The notes under the pieces were generated by a model. That model worked only from the letters and a program-made list of their open reading frames with translations. It ran no database searches and was not told where the DNA came from. DNA of 64,000 nt from Promethearchaeota archaeon. GTDB taxonomy: Archaea > Asgardarchaeota > Lokiarchaeia > Sigyniarchaeales > SOKP01. Shown here in pieces: positions 8,090-32,738 of the stretch. Where the stretch lies: contig JBHLMP010000009.1 of assembly GCA_048938025.1 (NCBI GenBank), positions 8,106 to 72,105 of the forward strand, in the 5' to 3' direction. Each line of letters starts with the position of its first letter. The stretch's first letter is position 1. A program made the position numbers and the translations under genes.

Positions 8090-8128
8090 TTAATAATTCT
8101 CCTCTAATTTTTTTGATATTTTTTATAA

Positions 8129-9119: not shown

Positions 9120-9143
9120 AAATTCAAAAAAAATCAAGAAATT

Positions 9144-12000: not shown

Positions 12001-12083
12001 CCAATTCTTTTAAAATAATAAAATAAAAAAAAGATACGAGAAAGTCTCCTGATTTTCTCCTGAAAATTTTTAACTAATTATTT

Positions 12084-16183: not shown

Positions 16184-18268
16184 ATGCCTGTTCATATTAC
16201 TGATTTCTTAGAAATAGAGTCTAATGGAATAAGAAAAAAAGATTTAATAAAAGCTCCAAGTTTAAAAAAAACCTTCATCTCAATTAATCAACATTTATAT
16301 GCAAAATTAAAACAAACTGATACAGATACGCGGACTAGATCAAAAGAAATAATCAATCTCTTACTTTGTAAATTAAATGATGAAATTAATAAGGATGATA
16401 ATGAAATTTTAGACTTTTGTATTAAAAAAGGTGAATCAATAGAAGATTTGTATGATAGAATACAAAAGTTATTCGAGAAAAATGTTAAAGAGAAGTATAT
16501 AGAAATCATAGGGGAAAATGAGCAAATCAGCTTAAATAAGGAACTCTTATATCTTATTGTGAATGAATTACAACACATATCGTTATTAAAATCTTCTAAA
16601 GATATATTGAGTGATGCGTTTGAGATTTTTGTAAGTAAGATTTTAAAAGATGAGGGAGGGCAATTCTTTACTCCTCCAAATATTATTGAATTCATGGTAC
16701 ATTATTTAGATCCTCCTGTTGATTCAAAAATATTGGACCCTGCCTGTGGTCATGGAGGATTTCTTCTTGAAGCAAAAGAACTGTTATGGTTAAAAATAAC
16801 CTCAGAAGATAAAAGAATAATTTCAATCTCAAATTTGTTTGGTATTGATAAAGACCTCTTCTTAGCAAAGATTAGTAAATTATACTTAGAAATATTGAGT
16901 AAGGGAAAGTCTTATATTTTTTGTGAAGATTCATTGGATCCTAAGAGTTATGGAACTCAAGCAAAAGAAGAAATAAAAGATAATTTATTTGATTATATTT
17001 TTACTAATCCTCCATTCGGGGTTAAAATTCCTATAAACGATAAAGAAATTTTAAAAGATTACAAACTTGGTCATATTTGGAAAAATATTGGTGATGGCTG
17101 GAAAATGCAAGAAAAGTTAGTAAAACAACAACCACCTCAAGTTTTATTTATTGAAAGGTGTATTCAGTTACTTAAAGACGGAGGAAAGCTAGGTATTGTC
17201 TTACCGGAAGGAATATTCGGAAATCCTACAGATCGCTATATTTGGGAATATTTAACTTCTAATGGTAAAATATTAGCTATTGTCTCATTGGATCAGAATA
17301 CCTTTCAACCTTATACATGTAATAAAACAAGTATTTTATTCTTTCAGAAATTGAATAATATTCCAGCAGATTATACAATTGATTTTGCAATTGTGGAAAA
17401 TGTGGGACATGATAAAGATGGAAAGGTTTTATATAAATTGAATAAAGATGGAACTAAAAAATTAGATTCTGCAGGCTATCCAATAATAAACGATGACCTC
17501 ATAGGGTTACACTTAAAAATAAAAAAGGCTGAAGAATTTAACTATTTAATGGAACAAAAAATCTTTAAGATTAAATTTAGCCAGATTAAAGATAAAATTT
17601 TCATCCCGATTTATTATATCGGTGTAGAAAAAACTTTAAAAAAACTAGCAAACGATAAGAATTTCACACTTTTAAGTATTAAAAAGTTAGCAAAACAAAA
17701 AATAATTTATACTAATAAGAGCGGTTATCTCCCACGAGGAGATGAAATAGGATCTCATGTATATGGTTTAGGAGATATCCCATTTATGAGGACGAGTGAT
17801 ATAAATAATTGGGAAATAAATTTAGATTCATATAAAAAGACAAGCGAAGAAGTTTATAAGCAATATAAACTAAAACAGAATATAGAAGAAGGAGATATCC
17901 TATTAGTTAAAGATGGTGGGCCTAATTTGATTGGTAAAACTGCTTATATAACTAGGTTAGATACCCAAATAATAATTCAGAGTCATATATTCCAGATAAA
18001 AGTATTAGAAAATAATGAATTTCTTGATTCTTATCTTCTTTTGTATTTATTGAATTTAGATATTGTGCAAAAACAAATTCAAGCAATTACTTTTGTTCAA
18101 GGAACAATAGCAACAATTGGAAATAGAATTATGGAAGTAATCTTACCAATCCCCTCGGATATTGAAAAAAGAAAAGAAATCTCAAGATATATAAAAAAGA
18201 TTATTGATGAGAAAACAGAAATAAGGAAGAATATATCCAGATTATCTATAGGATCTTTTAATGACTAA
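16184..18268 (+). CDS. N6-adenine DNA methyltransferase (HsdM-like, gamma class) fused to a single HsdS-like target-recognition domain
   Basis: Contains GQFFTPPNIIEFMV, ILDPACGHGGFLL (motif I) and FDYIFTNPPFG (motif IV NPPF). The C-terminal ~220 aa resemble a type I S-subunit TRD (GDILLVKDGGPNLIGKTAYI...SHIFQIKV...GTIATIGNRIMEVILPIP). Confidence 0.85.
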   Translation: MPVHITDFLEIESNGIRKKDLIKAPSLKKTFISINQHLYAKLKQTDTDTRTRSKEIINLLLCKLNDEINKDDNEILDFCIKKGESIEDLYDRIQKLFEKNVKEKYIEIIGENEQISLNKELLYLIVNELQHISLLKSSKDILSDAFEIFVSKILKDEGGQFFTPPNIIEFMVHYLDPPVDSKILDPACGHGGFLLEAKELLWLKITSEDKRIISISNLFGIDKDLFLAKISKLYLEILSKGKSYIFCEDSLDPKSYGTQAKEEIKDNLFDYIFTNPPFGVKIPINDKEILKDYKLGHIWKNIGDGWKMQEKLVKQQPPQVLFIERCIQLLKDGGKLGIVLPEGIFGNPTDRYIWEYLTSNGKILAIVSLDQNTFQPYTCNKTSILFFQKLNNIPADYTIDFAIVENVGHDKDGKVLYKLNKDGTKKLDSAGYPIINDDLIGLHLKIKKAEEFNYLMEQKIFKIKFSQIKDKIFIPIYYIGVEKTLKKLANDKNFTLLSIKKLAKQKIIYTNKSGYLPRGDEIGSHVYGLGDIPFMRTSDINNWEINLDSYKKTSEEVYKQYKLKQNIEEGDILLVKDGGPNLIGKTAYITRLDTQIIIQSHIFQIKVLENNEFLDSYLLLYLLNLDIVQKQIQAITFVQGTIATIGNRIMEVILPIPSDIEKRKEISRYIKKIIDEKTEIRKNISRLSIGSFND

Positions 18269-18316: not shown

Positions 18317-18754
18317 ATGAAAATTGAAAAATTTTCTATGGAATTATATGAAAATATAATTAATCTTTGGAGAAAGGCAGGAATTAATGTAGGGTCCACT
18401 GATACGAAAGAAGAAATAGAAAGAATGCTTAAAAGAAATCCAAATCTTTTCCTAATAGGTAGATTAAATGAAAAAATTATTGGTGTTGTGATGGGAGGAT
18501 TCGATGGAAGAAGAGGATATATCCATCATCTGGCAGTAGAACCTGATTATCAAAAAAGAGGATATGGTAAAATGTTGGTAGATGAATTAATTGTGAGGTT
18601 TCATCAGATGAGAGTACATAAAATTCATTTATTCATTGAAAAATATAATAGGACTGTTGTTGATTTCTATAGAAATTTGGGTTGGGAAATTAGAGATGAT
18701 TTGATTATGATGAGTTATGTACCTGATAAAAATTTATACAAGATGAGAATATAA
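18317..18754 (+). CDS. GNAT-family N-acetyltransferase
   Basis: 145 aa, with GYIHHLAVEPDYQKRGYGKMLVDEL (motif A Q/RxxGxG) and FYRNLGWE. Confidence 0.8.
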   Translation: MKIEKFSMELYENIINLWRKAGINVGSTDTKEEIERMLKRNPNLFLIGRLNEKIIGVVMGGFDGRRGYIHHLAVEPDYQKRGYGKMLVDELIVRFHQMRVHKIHLFIEKYNRTVVDFYRNLGWEIRDDLIMMSYVPDKNLYKMRI

Positions 18755-18873: not shown

Positions 18874-20652
18874 ATGAGTAATGAAATTAACGAATATTGG
18901 ATGAAATTATGGCCCAAAGAAACACCTCGCCATGTTGACTATGATAAAATATCCTTAGGAGAGATGTTAAGAAACACTGCTGAAACTTACCCTGAAAGTA
19001 AAGCAATATATTTTGAAGGTTTTAGAATGACATATAAAGAATTAGATAAAGCAGTAGATCAATTTGCTACAGCTCTTGCAAGGATGGGAATTAAAAAGGG
19101 TGATGTTGTTCTTATAGATTTACCTAATGTCCCCCAATTTGTAATAGCATACTATGGTATAGTTCGAATTGGTGCAATAGCAAATCCCATTATTCCTTTA
19201 AATAGATTTACCGAAATTGTGCATCAAACAAATGATTCTAAAGGAAAAATGCTTATAATTTTAGATGTTCTTTATGAAGAACATTTGCATAAAAATGATT
19301 TGACTAAAATGCCCACTTTGAAAGATATTATACTGACTGGAATTGCCGAATATCTACCCCCAATGAAAGCTAAATTAGGAACTGCTTTAGGAAAGGTACC
19401 GAGAATGAAGAAATGGCCAAAAAAAGTAGGAGATGTGAATTTTCATGAATTTCAAGATTTTTTGTCAAGAGGATTTCCAATCGATTTACCTGATGTAAAA
19501 ATTGACCCGATTAATGATGTTTCAACTTTAATATACACGGGTGGTACTACAGGGCTTCCAAAAGGGTGTATGATGTCACATTTTAATTTTGTGGTAAATG
19601 CGCAACAGGGTAGTACTTTTGTGCGAACTCAATTACCAAAAGTAGAAGAAACTTTAGGTAAAGGGGGAATGTTTGTGGTTTTGCCTTTAGCACATGAATT
19701 CGCATTATCAATAGCTATGAATATTGGAGTATATCATAGTTATAATCTTATATTATTCCCACAACCTCCTGCCAAGCTTTCAAAAATATTAAAAATGATT
19801 AAAAAGGAAAATGTAACTTTTGGCCCTGGAGTGCCAACTTTATGGAATAAGATTAGCCAAGACCCCGATTCTATTAAATATAAAGGGAAACTTGATTCTC
19901 TTATTGCATGCTTAAGTGGGGCTTCTGCTCTTCCTTTAGAAGTGAAACAAGAATTTGAGGATATTACTGGTGCATTAATCGTAGAAGGTTTTGGAATGAG
20001 TGAGACCAGTCCAATATTAACAGTCACCCCATTCCATAAATATAAAGAAAATACAGTAGGTTTCCCAGTGTCAGATACATTGATAAAAATTGTTGATCCT
20101 GAAGATGGTACTAAAATCTTACCCCAATGCCCCAATGAATCCTGCGAAGATTGTGGTACAAATGAAGCACAATACATTGGTGAGATTTGCGGATGTGGAC
20201 CCCAGGTATTTCTAGGGTATTTAAATAGACCAGATGCTACTGAATATGCATTGAGAAAAGATTCAAAAGGAAGAACCTGGTATTATACTACAGATATTGG
20301 TTGTATAGACCGTGATGGATATCTACATATTAAGGACCGTAAAAGAGATATGATTAAATATAAGGCACATAGTGTATTTCCAAGAGAAGTAGAAGATTTG
20401 ATGTATCTTCATGAAGCTATTAATGAAGTTGGCGTTGTTGGGGTTCCAGATCCAGAAGTGGGAGAAAATATTAAAGCTTATGTATCCCTCAAACCAGAAT
20501 ATCAAGGTAAGATATCAGAAGGTGATCTAAGAGAATGGTGTAAAGCAAATATTTCGGCATTTAAATATCCTAGAATTATTGAGATTATCCCAGAATTGCC
20601 TAAGTCTGTAGTAGGTAAAATATTACGGCGTGAATTAAGAACTAAAGAATAA
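18874..20652 (+). CDS. AMP-forming acyl-CoA synthetase with Cys-rich insertion
   Basis: Contains YTGGTTGLPKGCMM, GFGMSETS, TTDIG, DRKRDMIK and GKILRR. An extra segment, QCPNESCEDCGTNEAQYIGEICGCGP, precedes the A8-like region. Confidence 0.88.
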   Translation: MSNEINEYWMKLWPKETPRHVDYDKISLGEMLRNTAETYPESKAIYFEGFRMTYKELDKAVDQFATALARMGIKKGDVVLIDLPNVPQFVIAYYGIVRIGAIANPIIPLNRFTEIVHQTNDSKGKMLIILDVLYEEHLHKNDLTKMPTLKDIILTGIAEYLPPMKAKLGTALGKVPRMKKWPKKVGDVNFHEFQDFLSRGFPIDLPDVKIDPINDVSTLIYTGGTTGLPKGCMMSHFNFVVNAQQGSTFVRTQLPKVEETLGKGGMFVVLPLAHEFALSIAMNIGVYHSYNLILFPQPPAKLSKILKMIKKENVTFGPGVPTLWNKISQDPDSIKYKGKLDSLIACLSGASALPLEVKQEFEDITGALIVEGFGMSETSPILTVTPFHKYKENTVGFPVSDTLIKIVDPEDGTKILPQCPNESCEDCGTNEAQYIGEICGCGPQVFLGYLNRPDATEYALRKDSKGRTWYYTTDIGCIDRDGYLHIKDRKRDMIKYKAHSVFPREVEDLMYLHEAINEVGVVGVPDPEVGENIKAYVSLKPEYQGKISEGDLREWCKANISAFKYPRIIEIIPELPKSVVGKILRRELRTKE

Positions 20653-20689: not shown

Positions 20690-21730
20690 TTAAGATGATT
20701 TTACAAATTCATTTGAATTTTTAAGATAAATTTCTGCTTCTTTTACCATATTTTCAATAATATCTTTTACATTATCGAGACTATTGATTATCCCACAACT
20801 TTGACCTAACGGAACGGCGCCATTTTCTATATCTCCATAATATACAATTTCATAATTCTTTTGATCATCAAGAAAGTCTTGGATTGACATTGCACTCTCC
20901 TTCGCAATTTTCTCGTTTTTAGTTTTAACAGAATCATGATGAGCAGTATATTTATTCTTCCATAACCTTATCGGAGCTATGAATCCTGTTACAACTGTGG
21001 TATCTTGAGGTTTTGATGGGGATACAATCTGTTTGTAATTTTCATGAAATTCACTATCATTTGAGGCAATAAATCTAGTTCCCATGGCGATTGCTCCCGC
21101 TCCCATTGCTAATGCTCCAGCAAGCCCTACACCAGTTGCAAAACCTCCACATAAAATTATGGGAATGTCAGGGAATGTTTGTTTTACCTGTTGAATCAAA
21201 ACTAATGTTGATGTTTTCTCATAAGATTGATGTCCTCCACCCTCAAAACCGGTAACTACAAGTCCATCGACTCCTGCATCTACACACTTTCTAGCTAGCC
21301 AATATGCTGGAGCTACATGGTAATTTTTAATTTCAGACACTTTTTTTAGTTTCTGATAATTGTTACTTTTTTGTAACATACGAGCGGAACCAGCAGAAGT
21401 TATTGCATACCTCACTTGTTCTCTTAATTTTGGTTTGCTCATAATGAACTTGGGTATTTCTCTGCAAAGCTTTAAGGCATCCATCTGCAACCTTGCTGTT
21501 CTAATATTGAAACCAAATGGTTTGTCTGTATGCTCAATAACATATTCCATATTTTTCTTCATTTCCTCAGTACTACTTTTACCGAATAAATTAGTGTGAC
21601 TTAAAACTCCCATTCCTCCAGCTTCAGATACTGCTACTGTTAATTCCGTGGTATAAAAAGGTCCCATTGGTGCTGCAACAATTGGATGCTTAATTCCTAA
21701 CATTTTGGTTACGTTTGTCTCTAATACCAA
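20690..21730 (-). CDS. NAD(P)H-dependent flavin oxidoreductase, nitronate monooxygenase / FabK-like enoyl reductase family
   Basis: Contains MLGIKHPIVAAPMGPF...AVSEAGGMGVL, TGFEGGGH and GAIAMGTRF, a TIM-barrel FMN enzyme pattern. Confidence 0.75.
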   Translation of the reverse strand: MVLETNVTKMLGIKHPIVAAPMGPFYTTELTVAVSEAGGMGVLSHTNLFGKSSTEEMKKNMEYVIEHTDKPFGFNIRTARLQMDALKLCREIPKFIMSKPKLREQVRYAITSAGSARMLQKSNNYQKLKKVSEIKNYHVAPAYWLARKCVDAGVDGLVVTGFEGGGHQSYEKTSTLVLIQQVKQTFPDIPIILCGGFATGVGLAGALAMGAGAIAMGTRFIASNDSEFHENYKQIVSPSKPQDTTVVTGFIAPIRLWKNKYTAHHDSVKTKNEKIAKESAMSIQDFLDDQKNYEIVYYGDIENGAVPLGQSCGIINSLDNVKDIIENMVKEAEIYLKNSNEFVKSS

Positions 21731-21890: not shown

Positions 21891-23132
21891 GTGAAGAAAG
21901 TTGCAATTATAGGGATAGGGATTACTCCTTTTAAAGCGAGATATTTAGACAAAACCTACTTTGAATTGGCTTATGATGCAACGAAACTTGCACTAAATGA
22001 TGCAAATAATAATGGAGCAGAAATAACTCATAAGGATCTGCAATCCACAGTATATGGAATTTATAATGAATTATTTGAACGTCAATTTATGCCAGATATT
22101 TTTATAAATTCATACATAGGTATGAATAATAAACCAGGCACACGTATAGCAACAGGAGGGGCAACAGGAGGATATACTGTAAGGATGGCATATGCAGAAG
22201 TAGCTTCTGGCTTATCTGACTTATGTCTATGTATAGGAGTCGAAAAATGTAACGATTGCTATGACGAACAAACAGGTACAACTACGCCAGAGGTATTGAA
22301 CGCTATTGCATATTCTGCTGATATGACTTATGAATATCCTATGGGAATGCTGGCTGCCAGTTCTTATGTCTCGATGGTAAATGCACATTATGAGGAATTT
22401 GGGAATCCAACAGAAGAGCAAATGGCTTTGGTATCTGTTAAAAATCATGGAAATGCTATAAATAACCCAAAAGCACAATCTCCAATGAAAATAACAGTTG
22501 AAGATGTAATGAACTCAAGAATAATATGCTATCCATTTAAAATGTTAGATTGTTGTTTATATTCAGAAGCATCAGCAGCTTTAATTCTCGCAAATGAAGA
22601 TAAAGTAAAGGATCTAAAAATTGAGAACCCAATCTGGATTACTGGTGTGGCAGCAACAAATACTGATTGCTTTATAGGAAACAGAGAAGATATGGGACGT
22701 CTCTATTCTAATATTTATGCTGCAAAAGCAGCTTATAAAATGGCAGGATTAGATTATAACAAAATTAAGACACAAATTGATTTAGCGGAACTTCATGATG
22801 CTTTTAGTGGACAAGAGGTTATCAGCTATGAGGAGCTTGGGTTTGTTCCATTTGGGGAAGGAGGCAATTGGATAGAAACAGGTGGTCCTTTTATCGATGG
22901 TGAATTACCATGTTGTCCTAGCGGTGGATTGATTGGATGTGGTCATGCTGTGGGCGCTACAGGAATTATGTCCACAGGGGAAGCAGCTCTTCAGCTTCGA
23001 GAGGATGCTGGGAAGCATCAAGTAAAATCAATTGAAAATGGTAGAGCTATTGCTCATTCAATCGGAGGACCTGGAGCAGCATATGCAGCGGTTATAGTAA
23101 TGTCAAATGAGGAGGGGTTGAGAAAGGCGTGA
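21891..23132 (+). CDS. thiolase-fold protein (SCP-x/archaeal thiolase-like) apparently lacking the nucleophilic Cys
   Basis: GTG start, then MKKVAIIGIG. Contains RIATGGATGGYTV...VASGLSDLCLCIGVEK, SVKNHGNAINNP, ELHDAFS and CPSGGLIGCGHAVGATG. Confidence 0.85.
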   Translation: MKKVAIIGIGITPFKARYLDKTYFELAYDATKLALNDANNNGAEITHKDLQSTVYGIYNELFERQFMPDIFINSYIGMNNKPGTRIATGGATGGYTVRMAYAEVASGLSDLCLCIGVEKCNDCYDEQTGTTTPEVLNAIAYSADMTYEYPMGMLAASSYVSMVNAHYEEFGNPTEEQMALVSVKNHGNAINNPKAQSPMKITVEDVMNSRIICYPFKMLDCCLYSEASAALILANEDKVKDLKIENPIWITGVAATNTDCFIGNREDMGRLYSNIYAAKAAYKMAGLDYNKIKTQIDLAELHDAFSGQEVISYEELGFVPFGEGGNWIETGGPFIDGELPCCPSGGLIGCGHAVGATGIMSTGEAALQLREDAGKHQVKSIENGRAIAHSIGGPGAAYAAVIVMSNEEGLRKA

Positions 23133-23623
23133 GTGAAGAATTTCAAGATCATCAAGTAAGAGATATAATAAAAATCAATTACAAATATACGATGGGAGGA
23201 CAATCTAAATTTTTTCTTGAAGTTATGAATAACAAGAAATTATTAGGTACTAAATGTACCAAATGTGGGAAAACTTGGATGCCTCCAAGAATTAATTGCT
23301 CTGATTGTTTTGTTCCTGCTGAATGGGTGGAATTGAACCAAACAGGAACCATCCAAGTCAGCACCATAGTTTGGTATACCACTTCTGCTTTCATTAAAGC
23401 AATCCCATATGGTATAGGGTTTATAAAATTAGATGGCGCAGAAACCGCATTACTTCAAGGAATTTTTTCAGAAAATTTAGTCCCTTCTAAGATTAAGAGA
23501 GGAAGAAGAGTTAGAGCAGTTTTTAACAAAGTAAGAGAAGGGAAAATGACAGATTTTTTCTTTGTTCCAGAAGATGAATATGAAAACTGGATAAATAAAC
23601 CTGAATATGAAGGAGGGAACTAA
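23129..23623 (+). CDS. DUF35 Zn-ribbon/OB-fold acyl-CoA-associated protein
   Basis: Rubredoxin-like CTKCGKTWMPPRINCSDC followed by an OB-fold segment. The GTG start overlaps the upstream stop (GTGA). Confidence 0.85.
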   Translation: MSEEFQDHQVRDIIKINYKYTMGGQSKFFLEVMNNKKLLGTKCTKCGKTWMPPRINCSDCFVPAEWVELNQTGTIQVSTIVWYTTSAFIKAIPYGIGFIKLDGAETALLQGIFSENLVPSKIKRGRRVRAVFNKVREGKMTDFFFVPEDEYENWINKPEYEGGN

Positions 23624-23625
23624 AA

Positions 23626-23997
23626 ATGGGTATAGCAAGAGATAATTTAACAAAAATTATTGAAAACATAAACCACAATGAAAAAGCTCAAGTTGTTTTT
23701 GTAACTAATATTGCTGGGAAGGATGTTGATTGGGAAATGTCATTTCAATTCAACCTTGATAATGAAGACCCTTTTTATGTAGATATTAAAAACCGCAAAG
23801 CAATTTTGTTAGAAGGGACCAAATCAGATTCAGTTATAGTTATGTCTGGAGATCCTAATTCAATTGTTAAAATCTGCAACGGCAAGGGTGATTTCACTCA
23901 CGCAATCAGTCGTGAAGAGATTACTGTAGAAAAAGGTAGGGTTATGGATGTTATTAGACTAACAAGAGCAATAACAATCGTTTTAAAAACAAAATAA
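23626..23997 (+). CDS. SCP2 (sterol carrier protein 2)-like lipid-binding domain protein
   Basis: 123 aa. The pattern F.F.L......YVDIKN.KA.L.EG......VIVMSGDPNSIVKICNGKGDFTHAISREEITVEKG resembles the SCP2 fold signature. It starts 2 nt after the DUF35 stop. Confidence 0.6.
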   Translation: MGIARDNLTKIIENINHNEKAQVVFVTNIAGKDVDWEMSFQFNLDNEDPFYVDIKNRKAILLEGTKSDSVIVMSGDPNSIVKICNGKGDFTHAISREEITVEKGRVMDVIRLTRAITIVLKTK

Positions 23998-24510: not shown

Positions 24511-25566
24511 TTGATTAAATTGAAAATTGTTGATCTCCGTTCCGATACGGTAACAAAGCCATCTCCTGAAATGTGGGAAGTAGTTAAATCATTAGATAAT
24601 ACTAAGATAGGTGATGATGTTGAAAAAGAAGATCCAACTGTTAATGAATTAGAAGATAAAGCAGCAAAGATAGTGGGAAAAGAGGCAGCATTATTTGTCA
24701 CTTCAGGAACACAAGGAAACCTTGTCTCTTTATTATCCCAAACCACACCTGGAGATGAGATAATGGTTGAGGAACTTAGTCATATTTATGGTCATGAAGT
24801 AGGAAGTGCTGCTCGAATCGGAGGATTAATGATTTGTACCTATCCTTCAAATAAAGGTATCCCAAACTTAGATGACCTTCAGAACATGATTCGAGATAAG
24901 GAAGATATTCATGAACCTCCAACAACTCTTTTTTGTGCTGAAAATACTCATAATTTTCATGGAGGTATTATAATCAAACCTGAAGATCTTAATAAAATGA
25001 AAAAATTTGCAGGAAAAAACAATTTAAGATTTCATCTTGATGGTGCAAGAATATTTAATGCTTCGATAGCCCTCAACCGACCTGCTTCAGATTTCACTCA
25101 ATATGTTGATAGCGTTATGTTTTGTCTATCCAAAGGCCTTTCCTGCCCAGTTGGTTCTATTGTTGCTGGTTCATACGATTTTATTGAAAGAGCGAGAAGA
25201 TATAGAAAAATGTTAGGAGGAGGGATGAGGCAAGCAGGAGTTATTGCTTGTTTTGGGTTAGTGGCACTCGAACCGAAATGGATAAAAAGATTAGAGGAAG
25301 ATCATAAGAATGCTAAATTGCTTGCTGAAGGTCTTAAGAATCTAGAATTATCAATTAAAGTTCAACAACCAGAAACTAATATTTTCTGGGTAGATTTTCC
25401 ACTTAATATACCAATGGATAAACTAATGACTAATTTATCTGAAAATGGGATTAAAACCTTCAATTTTAACCATAGAATACGTTTCGTTACTCATTATGGA
25501 CTAAATGAAGATGATATTCAATATAGCATAGGAATAATTGAAAAAATTTTACTTAGTTTGTTCTAA
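24511..25566 (+). CDS. ltaE: PLP-dependent low-specificity L-threonine aldolase
   Basis: Contains DLRSDTVTKPSPEM, TSGTQGNL, HLDGARIFNA and FCLSKGLSCPVGS (PLP-Lys context). TTG start; an alternative TTG lies at 24520. Confidence 0.85.
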   Translation: MIKLKIVDLRSDTVTKPSPEMWEVVKSLDNTKIGDDVEKEDPTVNELEDKAAKIVGKEAALFVTSGTQGNLVSLLSQTTPGDEIMVEELSHIYGHEVGSAARIGGLMICTYPSNKGIPNLDDLQNMIRDKEDIHEPPTTLFCAENTHNFHGGIIIKPEDLNKMKKFAGKNNLRFHLDGARIFNASIALNRPASDFTQYVDSVMFCLSKGLSCPVGSIVAGSYDFIERARRYRKMLGGGMRQAGVIACFGLVALEPKWIKRLEEDHKNAKLLAEGLKNLELSIKVQQPETNIFWVDFPLNIPMDKLMTNLSENGIKTFNFNHRIRFVTHYGLNEDDIQYSIGIIEKILLSLF

Positions 25567-25605
25567 AATAAAAAAATAGAATAAATAATTAAATAAAAAT
25601 AATAA

Positions 25606-26109
25606 TTACTCTTTGCTGATATCTAAATCCTTTGCGTCATCTTCTACTAAATCATAGTATTCTATGTCATTTAATCCGCCAGTGATATTTTCTGCCCAAT
25701 GAACTTTAACTGGCATTCCAATATAAGTATCTTTTAAATCCACTTCAGGATTTAACTCACCCATCTCTGTTGTATCAGCTCCATCTTGGCGGATCAATAC
25801 CATTGGCTTTTCCCGAATTTCACCTGTTTCTGGATCTTTTAGATAAGCTATTGCATATGTAGAAACTTCACCTGTTTCTCGTAAATCAACCCATTGATCT
25901 GGTTTTATCATACATTTTCCACACACATATCTAGGAGGGAAAAAAACTCTATTACATCCTGGACATTTCAAACCAATCAATTTCTTCTCTTTTAATTTTT
26001 CTAAAAAAGGTTGAAAATGAGTAATATTAAATTTAAAATTATAACTGGTCAAATACCAATTACTTGGCATTGTTCTAGTCCTTTTATAGTCTCTTTTAAC
26101 GTAGTCCAA
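25606..26109 (-). CDS. DUF35 Zn-ribbon/OB-fold protein
   Basis: Contains CPGCNRVFFPPRYVCGKC plus an OB-fold tail. The TTG start is from the track; an alternative ATG (MPSNWYL) lies at 26070. Confidence 0.8.
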   Translation of the reverse strand: MDYVKRDYKRTRTMPSNWYLTSYNFKFNITHFQPFLEKLKEKKLIGLKCPGCNRVFFPPRYVCGKCMIKPDQWVDLRETGEVSTYAIAYLKDPETGEIREKPMVLIRQDGADTTEMGELNPEVDLKDTYIGMPVKVHWAENITGGLNDIEYYDLVEDDAKDLDISKE

Positions 26110-26142
26110 AGATTTCCTTTGAGTTAATTTTGACAGCTTAAT

Positions 26143-27390
26143 TCACCTCCATTTTCTCTGGGGTTCATCTGACATCACCATCATTGTACATAAATTAAGT
26201 ATTCCGCCCCACCCATGCCCGATAGCAGTATGAACCGTTTTAGGTACTTGATTACTGGCTTTTCCCATTATCTGTAAGGCAGCAACAGCAGGTCTCTCTA
26301 ATGCAGATGCTCCAATTGCATTAGTAGAATTAACACCTCCTGAACAGCATATTGGCAATTCACCATTTAACGCAGTTACTCCATTTTCGTACATCTGTGG
26401 AGCTGTAGTTTCTTCAAATAAACCCAATTTTTCAACCCACATGAGTTCCTGATTAGGGAATGGAGCATAAACTTCAGCATAATCTATTTCTTTTCGAGGA
26501 AAGGAGATCCCTGCCTGATTATAAGCCAATTCAGATGATTTCATTGCCCCTAATTGTTCTGAGGGATCTATTTGTCCTGATCCACTACAGTCATATCCAA
26601 GAACAGCTGTCTCATGAGCAATACTAGCCACACCATTTACATAAACGGGAATATCACACACATCTTTAGCTTTTTCTTCTGTTGTAAATAAAACCGCACA
26701 AGCACCATCACTTGCAGGACAAACCATCCCATATCTTAAGGGATAGGATATATAGGGCGTGTCCAAAACTTCTTCAATGGTAACATTTGGCATTTTTAAA
26801 TGAGCCCACCAAGTTTTTGCAGCATTACGTCTATTTTGTACCACCACTCTAGCCAAATCTTCTTCAGTTATCTTTGATTTACTCATATAATTAGTTGCTT
26901 GATATGAGGCTACACCAATAGCTGCACCTGCTGATAAAATACGTGTTAATCGTTCATAATCAATTCCTAGAGTATTGTAAATAGTAATTTCCCCATAGGC
27001 TACACTAGCTAAACCAGTAGCAGTGTTACCCTGGCTTTGTTGTTCAAAGCCAACGGCAAGTACTGTATCAATTCCGGGTAATCCTGCTGCAACAGTATAA
27101 TAACCGGCAATTGCAACAGTACCTCCTGTGGTACCCCCAGTTGTAACTCGCATTAATGGTTTATTTCTCGCTCCCATCCAATCGGTCATCCATAATTCCG
27201 GAATATTTGACCCTTCAAAGGCAGGCATATTTCCATTTACATAAGCATCAATATCTTCAAAACTTACGCTTGGAACTTTCTTTAAGCAATCTTCTATTGC
27301 TTCACTCACTAATTCAGGCATACTAACATCAGATCGTTTTGACGCATGTTCACTAAATCCTGCTGAAACTATTGCCACTTGCCTTCCCAT
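26143..27390 (-). CDS. thiolase-fold protein, catalytically degenerate (no Cys nucleophile, no HD(C/A)F, no GH..GATG His)
   Basis: Start re-set to MGRQVAIVSAGF (ATG 27390, 1 nt after the upstream stop). Contains RVTTGGTTGGTV, QNRRNAAKTWWAH, EVYAPFP and CCSGGVNSTNAIGASA. Confidence 0.8.
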   Translation of the reverse strand: MGRQVAIVSAGFSEHASKRSDVSMPELVSEAIEDCLKKVPSVSFEDIDAYVNGNMPAFEGSNIPELWMTDWMGARNKPLMRVTTGGTTGGTVAIAGYYTVAAGLPGIDTVLAVGFEQQSQGNTATGLASVAYGEITIYNTLGIDYERLTRILSAGAAIGVASYQATNYMSKSKITEEDLARVVVQNRRNAAKTWWAHLKMPNVTIEEVLDTPYISYPLRYGMVCPASDGACAVLFTTEEKAKDVCDIPVYVNGVASIAHETAVLGYDCSGSGQIDPSEQLGAMKSSELAYNQAGISFPRKEIDYAEVYAPFPNQELMWVEKLGLFEETTAPQMYENGVTALNGELPICCSGGVNSTNAIGASALERPAVAALQIMGKASNQVPKTVHTAIGHGWGGILNLCTMMVMSDEPQRKWR

Positions 27391-27391
27391 T

Positions 27392-28534
27392 TTAATTACT
27401 CCCCTCCAATACATACACGATATTATTTTGAGCACACATACCTATTTGACCAGAGGCTACAGCTTTTTTTGCCCCTTTAACTTGATATTGATTCCCTTCT
27501 CCTTTTAATTGTTTAGCAGCTTCGATTATTCTTATTAATCCTGTTGCACATGGTGGATTCCCTCCTATTGCTCCTCCAGAAGGATTTATTGGTAATTCGC
27601 CATTTATATTTGAATCAATATTTAAACCTTTACCTTTTTCAGCAAACCCCAACGCCTCAGTAAATATTAGTTCTTCATGAGCATAAGCCTCAAATAATTC
27701 AGCGATATCTATTTCGTCTCGTGGATTTTTAATTCTAGCCGATTTAAATGCCATTTTGCCAGCTAATTCCATTGATTTACTTGTTGATAAATCTCTATCA
27801 CCAAGATAATAACCTTCTTGACTATAGCCTACACCCGTGATCCAGACAGGATTTTCTGTTATTTTTAAAGCTTGTTTCTCAGGTGCTAATAATAAAGCAG
27901 CAACTCCATCACAAGGTTGAGCAACCATTAATTCTGTTACTGGATCAGCATAAATTTCTGACTCTAACACATCTTTAACGGTAAGGTTTGGATTTTGAGA
28001 TTCTGCTAAGGATAATGGATTTTTAGCGGCATTTTTCCTATTTTTTACAGCGATTTTAGCAATATCTTCAGCACTAATGCCATACTTCTCCATATATGCT
28101 CGCATTTGAAATCCAGCAGCAGTAATATCATTAACATAAGCAACGGGTCTTTCCCAAGTTGGATCTGTTTCATATAATCGAGCAGAGTGATATGGAAAGC
28201 ATGAAGCCATACTTCCACCCCAAACAACTGCTAGTTTATGATTACCAGATAATATCCTCATTAATCCATACAAAACAGCATGAGCACCATCCATTTCTAC
28301 TTTACTCTCATCGCTCATATATCCTCCACCAACTTCAACAGTAAAGCAATTTGATATCGTGCGTCCTTCATAATAATCATTAGTGCAAGAGATAACAGTT
28401 GTAATATCCTTTTTCTTTAAACCAACCATGTCAAGTGCACCTCTAACAGCTTCAAAAATCATTTCATACCGACCATAATTAGCATCTGAATACAATTTTA
28501 CTTGATTATATCCTACAATACCTACTTTTTGCAT
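27392..28534 (-). CDS. thiolase-fold protein, catalytically degenerate paralogue
   Basis: Contains MQKVGIVGY, KVEMDGAHAVLYG, AVKNRKNAAKNP, ELFEAYA and NPSGGAIGGNPPCATG. Confidence 0.8.
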   Translation of the reverse strand: MQKVGIVGYNQVKLYSDANYGRYEMIFEAVRGALDMVGLKKKDITTVISCTNDYYEGRTISNCFTVEVGGGYMSDESKVEMDGAHAVLYGLMRILSGNHKLAVVWGGSMASCFPYHSARLYETDPTWERPVAYVNDITAAGFQMRAYMEKYGISAEDIAKIAVKNRKNAAKNPLSLAESQNPNLTVKDVLESEIYADPVTELMVAQPCDGVAALLLAPEKQALKITENPVWITGVGYSQEGYYLGDRDLSTSKSMELAGKMAFKSARIKNPRDEIDIAELFEAYAHEELIFTEALGFAEKGKGLNIDSNINGELPINPSGGAIGGNPPCATGLIRIIEAAKQLKGEGNQYQVKGAKKAVASGQIGMCAQNNIVYVLEGSN

Positions 28535-28552
28535 GGTTCTTTTTACCTCCCA

Positions 28553-29017
28553 CTATAATTTTCTGAAACCCTTAATATCTGAAGGGTCACCTTTTGTTTT
28601 TTCTTCCCATACAGCTTTTACTTTCATTCCAGTTTTGATCTCTTCTGGGTTTATATCCAAAAGACGATAAACTATCCCTGTATTGCTACCATCAATTTGT
28701 ATCATCCCGATTATTTGAGGTTTTTTTACTTTTCGAGTAGTTCTATCATTCACCTTATAATATGTGACAGTGTAATTTAGCAAAATTCCTGTTTCAGGCA
28801 AATTAATCCAGTTTTGGTCCAAAGGAATTGTAATATTACATATTCCACAGATTTTTCTTGGAGGTACAAAAATTTTTCCACATTTCGGACATTTATTTCC
28901 AATGAATTTCTTGTTTTCAAGAGCATCATAGAATTTATCCATGTACTGACCAACCCAAAAATTAAATTCCGCTCTTATAAGTCCCTTATTAGCTACTATT
29001 ACCTTTTCTTCACTCAT
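28553..29017 (-). CDS. DUF35 Zn-ribbon/OB-fold protein
   Basis: Contains CPKCGKIFVPPRKICGIC followed by an OB-fold. It lies 18 nt upstream of the thiolase-like gene. Confidence 0.85.
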   Translation of the reverse strand: MSEEKVIVANKGLIRAEFNFWVGQYMDKFYDALENKKFIGNKCPKCGKIFVPPRKICGICNITIPLDQNWINLPETGILLNYTVTYYKVNDRTTRKVKKPQIIGMIQIDGSNTGIVYRLLDINPEEIKTGMKVKAVWEEKTKGDPSDIKGFRKL

Positions 29018-29231: not shown

Positions 29232-29834
29232 TTAAAATGTAAAACCCTCTGGTAGTTCTGACTCGTGTGTACCTTTAACAACAAACATTAAATCCATAAT
29301 TGTATAGGTTGGATTCTTGGTTCGAAAGATTGGCACAACACTTTTTCCTATTTCTGGTTCTCCGACAACTAACACGCTCATAAGAATAGTGACTACTTCT
29401 TCGTCAAATTCAACGTTTATGAATTTGATTGGTTTTGGCAAGACATTAAAAGCTCCAGAACGATGAGTAATAATAAATGAGTGGATTTTTGCAGTTTTCT
29501 GAGCTTTTTCAGTAATATCTATAACGGTATTTTTTCTTAGGCAATCTGGGCAATAAATTCTAAAAGGCAAGTGAATTGATCCTTTAAATTCACATTGATC
29601 ATTATCACATCTTGTCGCCATTAGTTTTCCCTTTCCAAGAGATTCGAAAAAAATAGCCTCACCACCATAAGAGTGGATATACGTCATATCTCTTGGATTT
29701 GTAACTCCAGCCAATTTTCCAGTATCTTCGTTAAAAATGGGTTGATTTGCCTCTATAATATGAAATTTTCCTTTTGGTTTGTATCTTCTATTAATTATGG
29801 AAACAAAACCTTTTTCTTCTTCAGTTTTTGGCAT
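29232..29834 (-). CDS. DUF35 Zn-ribbon/OB-fold protein (long form)
   Basis: Start re-set to MPKTEEEKGF, preceded by GGAGG and 5 nt after the upstream stop. The zinc ribbon is CDNDQCEFKGSIHLPFRIYCPDC. The track N-terminus (29835-29960) overlaps the upstream gene. Confidence 0.75.
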   Translation of the reverse strand: MPKTEEEKGFVSIINRRYKPKGKFHIIEANQPIFNEDTGKLAGVTNPRDMTYIHSYGGEAIFFESLGKGKLMATRCDNDQCEFKGSIHLPFRIYCPDCLRKNTVIDITEKAQKTAKIHSFIITHRSGAFNVLPKPIKFINVEFDEEVVTILMSVLVVGEPEIGKSVVPIFRTKNPTYTIMDLMFVVKGTHESELPEGFTF

Positions 29835-29839
29835 CTTTT

Positions 29840-31261
29840 TTATTCCTCCTTTATTAAGTGATTTGGATGCATTAAAATCGTACAAGTCACATGTGATCCT
29901 ACTCCAGCGTGACTTATTGCTAAACCTCTTTTTGCACCTTTTACTTGAAGACTTGTCCAATCCTTTGGTTTTTCACGACCAAATTCTTTCCATTTTTCTT
30001 CAGGCTCATGAATTTCATCCCATCGATTCCAGAGATGATATCCTATTTCAGCAATTTGCATAAGACCAGTTGCTCCTACAGCATGCATACAACCGATTAA
30101 TCCACCACATAAATTGCTAGGTAATTTACCTGGTTTTTTAGTATTTGGGTTTGTATGATATGCATCACCTGTTTCGATATAATCACGTCCATCTCCATAC
30201 GAACGAATACCAATATCTTCATAAGTTTGAATATCACTAATTGTAAAGGCATCATGGAGTTCCACAACATCAAGATCGTCAGTTGGATCAATAATCCCCG
30301 TCATATTATATGCATAATAAGCTGCTATACGTGCAGCTAAAAAACTGCTAAAACCGGGATATCTATCACCCCCGGGAAATCTTTTACCTAAATTATCATA
30401 TTGTCCTGGCTTTTCATTTGGTAAAAGGGGTATTTTCATATTACGACGATCAGCCACTCTTAAAGTGTGGCTTCCTGCACCAATCCAAATCCGAAGTGGA
30501 TTATCTGTTATTTCATATGCTGTTTTTTCATCACAAACAATACCACATGCAGCTCCAACACTCATTAGACAACAATCTAACGCACGTAAGGGATAAGCAA
30601 TAACAGGAGAATTAATTACATCCTCAACCGTGATTTTCATAGGCCCATGTGCGTGAGGATTCATTCTGGCATAACCACGATTTTTAACTGCAATTTCAGC
30701 CATAGTTTTTCTAAAAGAATCTTCTGCTTTACCAAAAATTTGCCAATATCTTTGAGCCATTACAGCATAATAACCAGTATAAATATGACCCAATGGTGTT
30801 TCCCAATCTTTATCAGCAGCACAAGATATAAGGTGGTTTCCCTCGTCAGTTGGGACTTCATCCATTCTCTCCCACCCCATAGCTAGAGCGCAATCACTAT
30901 ATCCAGAAGCAACAGTTTTAATTGCTTCCCACATCGTTGAACCTCCTGTAGCTCCACCTGTTTTGACACCAATGGTTCCTAATGGATCTAAACCCAATCT
31001 ATCGTGAATAACTGCTTCTCCTAGTAATTGATCTCCAAAATGATCTGCAAAATGCCCATAATAAGCAGTATGTATGAAACTCTTCAGTTCAGCAGGTGTC
31101 ATTTTAACAAAATCTGCTGCAGCTGTTAATGCTTGGATGCATAATTCTTCAGTTCGCGTTTCTGGAAAAGCTCTGTCGAATTTTGACATACCAACTGTAG
31201 CTAAATAAACTGGTCGCATTAATTTCGGTATTTTTAATTGTTTATCACTAAATTTAATCAT
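29840..31261 (-). CDS. thiolase-fold protein (473 aa) apparently lacking the nucleophilic Cys
   Basis: Contains GVKTGGATGGSTMWEAIKTVASGYSDCALAMGWE, AVKNRGYARMNPHA, ELHDAFT and CGGLIGCMHAVGATG. Confidence 0.85.
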   Translation of the reverse strand: MIKFSDKQLKIPKLMRPVYLATVGMSKFDRAFPETRTEELCIQALTAAADFVKMTPAELKSFIHTAYYGHFADHFGDQLLGEAVIHDRLGLDPLGTIGVKTGGATGGSTMWEAIKTVASGYSDCALAMGWERMDEVPTDEGNHLISCAADKDWETPLGHIYTGYYAVMAQRYWQIFGKAEDSFRKTMAEIAVKNRGYARMNPHAHGPMKITVEDVINSPVIAYPLRALDCCLMSVGAACGIVCDEKTAYEITDNPLRIWIGAGSHTLRVADRRNMKIPLLPNEKPGQYDNLGKRFPGGDRYPGFSSFLAARIAAYYAYNMTGIIDPTDDLDVVELHDAFTISDIQTYEDIGIRSYGDGRDYIETGDAYHTNPNTKKPGKLPSNLCGGLIGCMHAVGATGLMQIAEIGYHLWNRWDEIHEPEEKWKEFGREKPKDWTSLQVKGAKRGLAISHAGVGSHVTCTILMHPNHLIKEE

Positions 31262-31430: not shown

Positions 31431-32738
31431 ATGAAGATTGTCTTATTTATTATGGATAAAAGAGTCCCAGAATTACCAAAACTTGAAATTAGCGGATATA
31501 TTGCTGAATTAGACTTATTAAATAACCCAATATTTACAGTTAAAGAGAAAGAATTTATATCTGAATTTTATGACTTTATGGAAGAAAATCTTGAAAGAGA
31601 TCTGAAGACCTTAGAAGAACTAAATTATTTGGCAGAAGAACCGATACAAGAGAAGAAACGGGAAATTGTTGTTAATTTAATAAAAAAATTAGCAGAAAAA
31701 GGTTATTACAGTACGGTTATTGATTCAGAAGATTATGACCTTGGTAAAGTAACTCGAAATGCTCTTATAGCATTAGCCCTAAGCGGAGGTTTTTGGTCAA
31801 CAAATAGTGATAGGTATATTAATGGTAATTGGAGTGTTGAGATGGGTAGATTAGCAGGAGGAACTCTTTACTGCAATCCAGTAAATTATAAAGCAAATGA
31901 CTATCAGAGAAGAGAATTTTTAAATCCTGTTGTTAAATATGGCGCAATGGCAGCTTCAGCTATGACAGAATTTAATGCCGGTAGTGATATTATTAGAATT
32001 GAACTAAGACTAGATGAAAAAGATAATGAAGTAATTGCAAATGGCAAGAAACTCTTTATAGTAAACGGAATGTTAGCAGATTATATTATGTTATATGGTA
32101 GATTAAATAATGGAAAATTAGGAGCAATTATTGTAGATACGGAAAATCAACAACTGAAAAATTTTGAATCATCACGGGTAATTATGTATGGTATGAGAGA
32201 CGCCTTTGTCAGTCGCTTAGTATTTGATGATGTAAGACTCCCTAAAGAAAATCTTCTTGAAGGGGATGGTTTAGATATTATGTTTCATCAATTAACTGAA
32301 GAACGACTGGTAATTAGTTCAGAAGCTTTGGGAGATAGCATAAAAAAATTATTCTATTCTCATAGTTTTGCACTTCAACGTGAACAATTTCAACGAAAAC
32401 TATATCAATATCAAATAATTCGATTTCCAATTACTAAGAATATGCGTGAAGTGAATCTATATCTTTCAGCATTGTTGAATTATACTCGAGAAATTGATAA
32501 CAAACCACAATTAGGAAGTTCAAAAATAATGGCTTCTCAGGCAATGGGTTTGAAAATTGAAACTTGTGAATTGGCTTTTCAAAGCTCAATTGATTTATTT
32601 AGAACTATGGGTGGTCGTGGATTTACAGAACAATACTGTAATCAAATTGGGCTTCTTGATGCTTATTGTATGATACATGGCGGAGGTAGTCATTATATTT
32701 TAGGAGATTCAGAATCTCGAAAGTTTTTTAAGCGGTAA
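31431..32738 (+). CDS. acyl-CoA dehydrogenase-family flavoprotein (divergent, N-terminally extended)
   Basis: Contains AMTEFNAGSDI (FAD/acyl-CoA loop, cf. TEPxAGSD), LTEERLVISSEALG (helix G) and a C-terminal GGRGF...IHGGGSHYILGD. An alternative start lies at ATG 31452. Confidence 0.7.
   Translation: MKIVLFIMDKRVPELPKLEISGYIAELDLLNNPIFTVKEKEFISEFYDFMEENLERDLKTLEELNYLAEEPIQEKKREIVVNLIKKLAEKGYYSTVIDSEDYDLGKVTRNALIALALSGGFWSTNSDRYINGNWSVEMGRLAGGTLYCNPVNYKANDYQRREFLNPVVKYGAMAASAMTEFNAGSDIIRIELRLDEKDNEVIANGKKLFIVNGMLADYIMLYGRLNNGKLGAIIVDTENQQLKNFESSRVIMYGMRDAFVSRLVFDDVRLPKENLLEGDGLDIMFHQLTEERLVISSEALGDSIKKLFYSHSFALQREQFQRKLYQYQIIRFPITKNMREVNLYLSALLNYTREIDNKPQLGSSKIMASQAMGLKIETCELAFQSSIDLFRTMGGRGFTEQYCNQIGLLDAYCMIHGGGSHYILGDSESRKFFKR

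Follow-up and report, generated by a model that had tools for sequence, protein, structure and literature searches.

A conserved Lokiarchaeal operon pairing two cysteine-less thiolase-fold paralogues with two DUF35 proteins: a putative Ltp4/Ltp3-type (retro)aldolase system

The sequence analyzed here, referred to as the window, is a 64,000-nucleotide (nt) stretch of a Promethearchaeota archaeon genome of the Lokiarchaeia (assembly GCA_048938025.1, contig JBHLMP010000009.1, positions 8,106 to 72,105). It contains, at 25606-29017, a minus-strand operon of four genes encoding two thiolase-fold proteins, designated ThlA and ThlB, that are bracketed by two DUF35 proteins, designated DUF35a and DUF35b. 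The comparative evidence presented below suggests, with a probability that we place at roughly 55%, that this operon is the Lokiarchaeal version of the Ltp4/Ltp3 plus DUF35 system, and that its products form a hetero-complex acting not as a thiolase but as a 3-hydroxyacyl-coenzyme A (CoA) (retro)aldolase, with catalysis carried out by ThlB. The Ltp3/Ltp4 system was previously known only from sterol-degrading actinobacteria, and only genetically.

In order of transcription, the operon comprises DUF35a (28553-29017, 154 amino acids (aa)), ThlA (27392-28534, 380 aa), ThlB (26143-27390, 415 aa) and DUF35b (25606-26109, 167 aa), separated by gaps of 18, 1 and 33 nt. The junction between ThlA and ThlB reads TAA-a-ATG, with a Shine-Dalgarno-like GGAGGGG 10 nt upstream, and a comparable GGGAGGT precedes ThlA. 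The mechanically called open reading frame (ORF) of ThlB extends back to a GTG at 27435; since more than 120 homologues are 415 aa long, the start was assigned to the ATG at 27390. The TTG start of DUF35b was retained because orthologues conserve the residues that precede an internal Met. The window has a G+C content of about 30%, and a T-rich tract (25561-25605, read on the minus strand) directly follows the DUF35b stop codon, beyond which the next gene (24511-25566, plus strand) is convergent. Oligo-T stretches are the archaeal type of terminator, and the transcription unit therefore likely ends within this tract. ThlA and ThlB both match the Pfam domains Thiolase_N and Thiolase_C_1. The bracketing proteins are of the zinc-ribbon/OB-fold (DUF35/ChsH2) type: DUF35a matches OB_ChsH2_C (E 4e-9) and zf-ChsH2 (E 6e-6), and DUF35b matches zf-ChsH2 (E 7e-9), with OB_ChsH2_C falling below its cut-off. 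The two are distinct proteins with 33% mutual identity (E 2e-22), both keep the CxxC...CxxC zinc ribbon (as seen in 84 Lokiarchaeia sequences for DUF35a), and both match in the PDB, by sequence, 3irb, the DUF35 protein of 6esq and the DUF35 domain of ChsH2 (6ok1), with PhlB as a further match for DUF35b. The initial annotation of this region had described four tightly packed same-strand genes in which two different DUF35 proteins bracket a thiolase-like pair, and both descriptions are upheld, the first also by the conservation of the gene order reported below.

Active-site motifs were mapped through HMMER alignments of ThlA and ThlB to the Cys-bearing P. furiosus thiolase 7yvy. Opposite the AACASGG nucleophile loop of that enzyme, ThlA carries a loop that is three residues shorter (K-V-E-M-D-G) and ThlB reads T-G-G-T-T-G-G, placing Gly86 in the Cys column. 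The H-D-A-F of 7yvy corresponds to F-E-A-Y in ThlA and to Y-A-P-F, beginning with Tyr308, in ThlB, and the His column of the G-H-P motif is occupied by Asn in both proteins (Asn326 in ThlA, Asn357 in ThlB). Both ThlA and ThlB hence lack the three catalytic residues of thiolases (EC 2.3.1.9 and 2.3.1.16), namely the Cys nucleophile of the N-beta3/N-alpha3 loop and the His residues of the HDCF and GHP motifs, in agreement with the initial annotation, whose six quoted motif strings are all present. Its description of the two active sites as doubly degenerate is, nonetheless, an overstatement, because the residue of ThlB that aligns with the catalytic base of two characterized enzymes is an invariant Tyr. 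These enzymes, TcLtp2 and CtSal, are Cys-less thiolase-fold steroid retro-aldolases (PMC12329534); Ltp2, which the initial annotation had listed among systems with a catalytically competent thiolase-fold partner, thus lacks the Cys as well. Their catalytic base is the first residue of a Y-D-(H/C)-(F/Y) motif, the equivalent of H-D-C-F in SCP2 thiolases (Tyr294 in Ltp2, Tyr302 in Sal); the substrate hydroxyl is bound by the Gly backbone at the former Cys position (Gly89 in Sal), and Cys304 serves as the acid in Sal and Tyr344 in Ltp2, the latter corresponding to Gln352 of Sal (PMC12329534). In a direct alignment, Y302-D-C304-Y of CtSal lies opposite F-E-A-Y of ThlA, and CtSal Gln352 falls in the thiolase G-H-P His column, opposite Asn326 of ThlA. 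Through 7yvy, Y308-A-P-F and Asn357 of ThlB fall in the same columns as the YDCY motif and Gln352 of CtSal. The base Tyr of the retro-aldolases is therefore found in ThlB and not in ThlA.

The residues that replace the thiolase machinery in ThlB are strongly conserved. In an alignment of 41 sequences reaching down to 28% identity, Gly86, Glu306, Ser350, Gly351, Gly352 and Asn357 of ThlB are invariant. Tyr308 is present in all Lokiarchaeia orthologues and in 33 of the 33 50%-identity clusters of the wider ThlB-like family (type B, defined below), although a Tyr in this column was one of the criteria by which that family was defined. In the corresponding ThlA-like family (type A), the base column is variable across its 33 clusters (F, H, S, C, Y, G or T), and ThlA itself has Phe281. 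Type A proteins keep family-wide residues of their own, namely Asp82 and Arg246 and, in most members, Cys367 and Gln369 (ThlA numbering).

The AlphaFold2 models of ThlA (predicted local distance difference test (pLDDT) 91.8, predicted template modelling score (pTM) 0.94) and of ThlB (pLDDT 87.6, pTM 0.90) both show the five-layer alpha-beta-alpha-beta-alpha fold in two halves that is typical of the thiolase superfamily, with a Foldseek probability of 1.00 and template modelling (TM) scores of up to 0.92. ThlA superposes on the archaeal thiolase 6esq with a TM score of 0.9 and on Sal and Ltp2 with scores of 0.82-0.85, and ThlB on 6esq/6et9 with 0.85-0.90 and on Ltp2 with 0.74-0.81. Most of the nearest solved structures are partnered by DUF35 proteins, including the thiolase of the thiolase/HMG-CoA synthase/DUF35 complex, BbsB, PhlC-type enzymes, Sal and Ltp2; the P. 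furiosus thiolase, ST0096 and SCP2 thiolases are other close neighbors. Ltp2-ChsH2(DUF35) (6ok1) and Sal-Shy(DUF35) (9myr) share with the Lokiarchaeal operon a thiolase fold without a Cys nucleophile, a DUF35 partner and, in ThlB, the Tyr in first position of the (Y/H)D(C/H)(F/Y) motif; the thiolase His position carries an amide in ThlB and Sal and a Tyr in Ltp2. This resemblance spans Foldseek TM scores of 0.74-0.85 at a sequence identity of only about 20-25%. Unlike the operon, which encodes two diverged thiolase-fold paralogues and two stand-alone DUF35 proteins, the Ltp2 and Sal systems are built on homodimers of a single thiolase-fold protein, and their DUF35 forms part of a hydratase as one of its domains.

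A scan of one genome per species identified 110 relatives, and the best 80 of these 110 loci were compared. The order DUF35a-ThlA-ThlB-DUF35b is kept in 80 of 80 Lokiarchaeia/Promethearchaeota species loci, as far as the contigs extend. More than 120 protein clusters share 85-94% identity with ThlB, and nearly all of those that bear a name come from Promethearchaeota/Lokiarchaeia metagenome-assembled genomes (MAGs). Across the 80 loci, identity to the window protein ranges from 78 to 94% for ThlB, 68 to 90% for ThlA, 55 to 90% for DUF35a and 47 to 87% for DUF35b, and the ratios of nonsynonymous to synonymous substitution rates (dN/dS), computed pairwise against about 80 orthologues (dS of about 1.5-1.8), are 0.056, 0.073, 0.098 and 0.119, respectively. 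All four genes are under strong purifying selection and none is decaying; in particular, the values of 0.06-0.07 for ThlA and ThlB rule out that these are pseudo-enzymes undergoing decay. One Promethearchaeia MAG (L079, JAWOCD010000011.1, approximately 4850-13000) carries a tandem double cassette, in which DUF35a-ThlA-ThlB-DUF35b is followed by DUF35a'-ThlA'-ThlB' at 48-73% identity, the product of a duplication of the entire unit that is specific to this lineage. A contig labelled 'Candidatus Nanopelagicaceae bacterium' (L038, DATKTW010000129.1) harbors the Lokiarchaeal cassette at 84% protein identity and is probably a mis-binned archaeal contig, and several loci at 82-92% identity bear Hodarchaeota, Hermodarchaeota, Thorarchaeota or Odinarchaeota labels, suggesting inconsistency in the taxonomic naming of MAGs.

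In order of decreasing frequency, the genes flanking the cassette include a nitroreductase gene downstream on the same strand and a divergent, upstream SepF gene (36 of the 80 loci each), a convergent Thr-aldolase-like gene (Beta_elim_lyase; about 30 of 80, and likewise in the window), a same-strand upstream gene pair of the 2-hydroxyacyl-CoA dehydratase type (HGD-D; about 12-15 of 80) and a gene for a beta-keto acid cleavage enzyme (BKACE; about 14 of 80), with an acyl-CoA dehydrogenase, an acyl-CoA ligase and a further thiolase-like/DUF35 pair each found in about 11-14 of 80. These flanks vary among loci and do not outline a consistent pathway. BKACE, which also occurs in an unclassified metagenome contig outside this set (L086, 1292-2134), and HGD-D may be clues to the substrate.

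In order to place ThlA and ThlB among their relatives outside the Lokiarchaeia, 50%-identity representatives were searched exhaustively with HMMER, 104 full-length ones were aligned and the three active-site columns were read. All Lokiarchaeal ThlB proteins fall in one 50%-identity cluster; the next match scores 337 bits at 44% identity and is followed by a long tail at 30-44%. Type B proteins, like ThlB, combine a T-G-G-(T/S)-x-G loop with A-E-x-Y at the HDCF position and S-G-G-V-x-x-(T/S/A)-N-(P/A)-I-G-A at the GHP position (33 clusters), and type A proteins, like ThlA, combine the short (V/A)-E-x-D-G loop with a variable HDCF position and N-P-S-G-G at the GHP position (33 clusters). True thiolases, with A-C-A-S-G, H-D-C-F and G-H-P, account for 8 clusters. 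A fourth type, to which the two other thiolase-like genes of the window belong, has T-G-G-A-T-G-G, H-D-A-F and G-C-G-H-A and was not counted separately. The named members of the closest type B clusters are Actinomycetota MAGs, Dehalococcoidia, Streptomyces and a second Lokiarchaeia paralogue.

Several of these relatives occur in recognizable cassettes. One Actinomycetota MAG (L082) has a layout identical to that of the window, DUF35 (153 aa)-A (385 aa)-B (411 aa)-DUF35 (152 aa). A second locus outside the Lokiarchaeia (L087) reads MaoC hydratase-DUF35-A-B-DUF35, followed by three acyl-CoA dehydrogenases, a thiolase-like/DUF35 pair, a CoA transferase and SCP2, and a third (L086) reads MaoC-A-B-DUF35, together with a second, convergent B/A pair, an acyl-CoA dehydrogenase, a ligase and BKACE. 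In Streptomyces griseofuscus (L084, AP018517), an acyl-CoA ligase and an enoyl-CoA hydratase are followed by a 313-aa fused double DUF35 protein, an A protein (349 aa) and a B protein (388 aa). Within that fused protein (5017-5958 of the locus), the N-terminal half lacks all four zinc-ribbon Cys residues and the C-terminal half has CPRC...CPTC. In BLAST searches, the upstream gene of each such pair matches ThlA and the downstream gene matches ThlB, and the A/B duplication hence predates the split of these cassettes. Adjacent Cys-less thiolase-fold genes in A-then-B order with DUF35 are thus found in the window, in the 80 Lokiarchaeia loci and in these four bacterial or metagenomic loci, and the pairing is ancient and widespread. 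The suggestion of the initial annotation that such an arrangement is undescribed does not hold, given this bacterial occurrence and the link to Ltp4/Ltp3 set out below.

ThlB also carries an insertion of about 25 residues (residues ~125-155, window ~26926-27018), with pLDDT values below 50 at residues 132-139 and 149-154. Most type B relatives lack this insertion, which recurs in an Actinomycetota MAG clade (P0121, 411 aa), the closest outgroup and one whose four-gene layout is likewise identical. The shared insertion and layout hint at a transfer between sediment Actinomycetota and Lokiarchaeia. Among 150 representatives no natural A-B fusion was found; the only long fusion, P0177 (731 aa), joins one Cys-less thiolase-like domain (Y-V-G-G-G-T-G, E-P-Y-D-P-F, G-V-G-N-P) to two tandem DUF35 domains, and could help to show how two DUF35 domains dock on a thiolase fold.

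The connection to Ltp3/Ltp4 runs through the Streptomyces pair. Its A protein scores 563 bits (cut-off 419) with NCBIfam PRK07937 ('lipid-transfer protein') and its B protein 706 bits (cut-off 514) with PRK08313. We take PRK07937 to be the Ltp4 family and PRK08313 to be the Ltp3 family, from M. tuberculosis annotation and in keeping with the family name and with synteny. The published M. tuberculosis gene list gives fadD19 (Rv3515c), echA19 (Rv3516), the conserved hypothetical Rv3521, ltp4 (Rv3522) and ltp3 (Rv3523) (PMC6429209), an order mirrored by the Streptomyces succession of ligase, hydratase, double DUF35, A and B. ThlA and ThlB are 29-39% identical to the Streptomyces proteins and share their diagnostic motifs: the Streptomyces type A protein has S-H-V-E-M-D-G-A, corresponding to the short loop of ThlA, and the type B protein has R-V-H-T-A-G-S-V-G-G, V-E-M-Y-V-P-F and S-G-G-V-L-S-T-N-P-I-G-A, corresponding to the three motifs of ThlB. 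The Lokiarchaeal operon therefore resembles the Ltp3/Ltp4 system in having adjacent Cys-less thiolase-fold paralogues in A-then-B order with DUF35 alongside, and in the V-E-M-D-G loop of A and the T/A-G-S/T-x-G-G, A/V-E-x-Y-x-P-F and SGGV..N-P/A-IGA motifs of B. It differs in having two separate, bracketing DUF35 proteins where Streptomyces has one fused double DUF35 upstream, and in its archaeal host, the lack of an adjoining hydratase or ligase and the lack of a sterol-catabolic context: no fadD19/echA19-type neighbors were found around the Lokiarchaeal cassette, the flanks of which are the nitroreductase, SepF, HGD-D, BKACE and Thr-aldolase-like genes listed above. Ltp3 and Ltp4 are described as aldol-lyases needed for the degradation of C24-branched sterol side chains, from which they reportedly release propionyl-CoA in a retro-aldol reaction (Wilbrink 2012, as cited in PMC10832528 and PMC6593523). 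The literature that we searched contained gene lists and knock-outs only, and no account of how any Ltp3/Ltp4-type pair assembles, of its structure or of its activity in vitro, so that the mechanistic gap to which the initial annotation drew attention is real.

Under the Ltp4/Ltp3-type reading, ThlA and ThlB would form a heterodimer with one DUF35 protein on each side, DUF35a being the predicted partner of ThlA and DUF35b that of ThlB, in the alpha-beta-beta-alpha layout that has been solved for Ltp2-ChsH2(DUF35) and Sal-Shy(DUF35). The reaction would most likely be a reversible retro-aldol cleavage of a 3-hydroxyacyl-CoA into a short acyl-CoA and an aldehyde or ketone. In ThlB, the beta-hydroxyl would be held by backbone atoms of the Gly-rich loop (Gly86, in place of the Cys nucleophile), Tyr308 would be the general base acting on that hydroxyl, and Asn357, at the thiolase His position, would help to stabilize the thioester enolate. 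ThlA, without a conserved base residue, probably completes and shapes the substrate pocket and is predicted to be non-catalytic or auxiliary; inactive partners are known to shape pockets in other heteromeric acyl-CoA enzymes. The hydratase placed directly upstream in bacterial relatives fits a hydratase-then-aldolase sequence. The initial annotation had proposed a new aldolase or acyl-transfer complex, or else a scaffold; an aldolase-type function is the best reading of the data, whereas the novelty of the system is not borne out.

Several observations weigh against this interpretation. The second catalytic residue of Ltp2 and Sal has no equivalent in ThlB, in which Pro310 takes the place of Cys304 of Sal and His296 of Ltp2, and Asn357 that of Tyr344 of Ltp2. 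The best NCBIfam match of ThlB is, by a wide margin, PRK08313, yet its 362.5 bits lie below the cut-off of 514; ThlA reaches about 190-212 bits with its best matches, PRK06065, PRK06066 and PRK07937, without attaining the cut-off of any of them, and PRK07937 (193 bits, cut-off 419) is not the top match. Because of these scores, the Lokiarchaeal proteins must be regarded as a divergent branch outside the curated families. The similarity in gene order to M. tuberculosis was read from a published gene list, and the aldol-lyase role of Ltp3/Ltp4 is itself a genetic inference only. No hydratase adjoins the Lokiarchaeal cassette in the flanks of the 80 loci. Finally, ThlA is conserved as strongly as ThlB and has its own family-wide residues in or near pocket loops, and it may have an activity of its own.

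This last point bears directly on the main rival, in which the operon encodes two separate enzymes side by side, homodimeric DUF35a2-ThlA2 and DUF35b2-ThlB2, each with the alpha-beta-beta-alpha layout of Ltp2 or Sal and each catalyzing a different or successive step on related CoA esters. Such an organization would account for the mirror-symmetric gene order, in which each DUF35 gene adjoins one thiolase-like gene, and for the conserved pocket-loop residues and equally low dN/dS of ThlA, and it would agree with the homodimeric thiolase-fold cores of all solved DUF35 aldolase/thiolase complexes (PMC12329534; bioRxiv 2024.07.05.601840). We nevertheless consider it unlikely. The two genes are always adjacent and in A-then-B order from archaea to Actinomycetota, the ThlA stop and the ThlB start lie 1 nt apart, and type A proteins have no conserved residue at the catalytic-base position. 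The fusion of two DUF35 domains in one chain upstream of the Streptomyces A-B pair is a further argument for a single assembly that contains both subunits. It is from this invariant pairing across domains, the stop-start spacing, the DUF35 gene beside each subunit and the Streptomyces fusion that we infer a hetero-complex of ThlA and ThlB.

A different question is the direction in which such a complex would operate. Aldol reactions are reversible, and the same assembly might instead condense an acyl-CoA enolate with an aldehyde or ketone, providing thiolase-independent C-C bond formation for lipid or other biosynthesis. The presence of a highly constrained cassette in 80 of 80 Lokiarchaeia loci, mostly alone beside housekeeping genes such as SepF rather than in a catabolic island, is in line with a biosynthetic role, and archaeal DUF35 complexes are able to pull unfavorable condensations forward (bioRxiv 2024.07.05.601840). 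Against this, the cassette has no conserved reductase, dehydratase or other biosynthetic partner beside it, the bacterial relatives sit with a catabolic set of acyl-CoA dehydrogenases, hydratases, ligases and CoA transferases, and the neighbors in the window are also of beta-oxidation type, all of which makes a condensing role improbable.

The absence of all three canonical thiolase catalytic residues from both proteins could also be taken to mean that the complex is non-catalytic and serves either as a scaffold that binds and carries acyl-CoA or lipids, or as a platform for channelling between other enzymes. The recruitment of additional enzymes is within the capacity of DUF35 proteins (bioRxiv 2024.07.05.601840), and an SCP2-like gene lies nearby (23626-23997). 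Such a role is, however, difficult to reconcile with the invariance of Tyr308 and Asn357 and the conservation of the type B Gly-rich loop across phyla, at precisely the active-site positions of Ltp2 and Sal, with the very low dN/dS values, or with the genetic data cited for Ltp3/Ltp4, which, as reported in the citing articles, point to a catalytic step; we regard it as quite improbable. Least probable of all is a true thiolase or acyltransferase with an unconventional nucleophile, which might be another Cys or a Thr or Ser in the TGGTTG loop. In favor of it, Thr residues flank the former Cys position in ThlB, Cys224 is nearly invariant and ThlA often has a Cys in its C-terminal G-x-C-x-Q loop. 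Across type B, however, the residue next to Gly86 may be T, S, A or V, Cys367 of ThlA is likewise variable, the His that activates and stabilizes thiolysis intermediates is absent from both subunits, and Cys224 belongs to a C-P-x-S-D-G motif that also occurs in ordinary Cys-thiolases such as 6esq (HCSPVSDG) and is hence structural.

Other DUF35-containing and thiolase-fold systems were compared with the operon. The archaeal thiolase/HMG-CoA synthase/DUF35 complex (6esq, 6et9) is a close structural neighbor (first or second in rank for ThlB and among the top 8 for ThlA; TM 0.85-0.92) and, like the S. acidocaldarius ketothiolase/DUF35 fatty-acid synthase complex, has its DUF35 scaffold encoded in the same operon. 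The thiolases of these complexes, in contrast to ThlA and ThlB, keep the Cys, the His and the HDCF motif and perform Claisen chemistry, and their partner is an HMG-CoA synthase or a reductase/dehydratase rather than a second SCP2-type thiolase-fold paralogue. The operon was rejected as a thiolase/HMG-CoA synthase/DUF35 complex, as it contains no HMG_CoA_synt domain and both of its thiolase-fold proteins are Cys-less. BbsAB was rejected likewise: the BbsB model scores 73 bits with ThlB and 88 bits with ThlA (cut-off 750), the BbsA model scores about 16-17 bits (cut-off 250), and the Cys is missing. The PhlACB/MucABC acyltransferases do not fit either, since there is no counterpart of PhlC Cys88 and both large subunits are of the SCP2-thiolase type, with no KAS-III or HMG-CoA-synthase domain. 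ST0096 of Sulfolobus tokodaii (4yzo) is the best PDB sequence match of ThlB and has a similarly Cys-less loop (N-T-S-G-S-G-G); unlike ThlB, it keeps H-D and G-H-P (AELHDMAT, KGHPIGASG), and it has no known paralogous partner.

The operon is surrounded in the window by further genes of acyl-CoA metabolism. Directly upstream, 214 nt before DUF35a, lies a second minus-strand pair formed by ThlC (29840-31261, 473 aa) and DUF35c (29232-29834), the latter longer than usual and probably starting at the ATG at 29834 rather than at the TTG at 29960. ThlC scores 671 bits with NCBIfam PRK06365 (cut-off 695) and is Cys-less (T-G-G-A-T-G-G, with Cys replaced by Gly relative to 6esq and 7yvy), keeping H-D-A-F and C-M-H. 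Only about 12-14 of the 80 loci have this pair ahead of the cassette. On the plus strand, another thiolase-like/DUF35 pair, ThlD (21891-23132) and DUF35d (23129-23623), is followed by the small SCP2-like gene already mentioned; ThlD is again Cys-less, with R-I-A-T-G-G-A-T-G-G opposite E-A-A-C-A-S-G of 6esq/7yvy, and keeps H-D-A-F and G-C-G-H-A. Its TGGATGG type is a separate widespread signature. The window also encodes two AMP-binding acyl-CoA ligases (12641-14356, 18874-20652), two enoyl-CoA hydratases (14493-15269, 15314-16096), an NMO/FMN oxidoreductase (20690-21730) and an atypical acyl-CoA dehydrogenase with no N-terminal Pfam domain match (31431-32738), a neighborhood interrupted by an N6 DNA methylase/Eco57I-like gene (16184-18268) and a GNAT gene (18317-18754).

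None of the four thiolase-like/DUF35 pairs in the window has a nucleophilic Cys, and no Cys was found at the nucleophile column in any of 181 thiolase-fold ORFs of the window and the 80 Lokiarchaeia loci (about 0.9 Mb), a biased sample that is centred on the cassette and, for that reason, says nothing yet about whole genomes. It is conceivable, if rather doubtful, that Lokiarchaeia run acyl-CoA C-C bond chemistry largely through Cys-less, aldolase-type thiolase-fold/DUF35 complexes rather than through ketothiolases. If so, the ThlA/ThlB cassette would be a core enzyme of an 'aldolytic' route interconverting 3-hydroxyacyl-CoA with an aldehyde or ketone and acyl-CoA, and the reading of Asgard 'ketothiolase/DUF35' pairs in arguments on butyrate fermentation and fatty-acid synthesis would change. 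Ketothiolase/DUF35 pairs, at 3.8 per Asgard genome, have been read as potential for fatty-acid synthesis (bioRxiv 2024.07.05.601840), and '3-ketoacyl-CoA thiolase' has been listed as a conserved Asgard gene of butyrate fermentation (PMC7015854); because every such pair in the window is Cys-less, both inferences need a check at the level of individual residues. For the operon itself, which is highly conserved in Lokiarchaeia and annotated as 'acetyl-CoA acetyltransferase', a better label would be that of an Ltp3/Ltp4-type thiolase-fold (retro)aldolase with two DUF35 proteins, not a thiolase. Ltp3/Ltp4 would accordingly represent one branch of a widespread A/B heteromeric family, with dozens of 50%-identity clusters for each subunit, whose structure and chemistry have never been characterized, and for which the small, four-protein archaeal version with two intact zinc-ribbon DUF35 proteins could be a good structural target.

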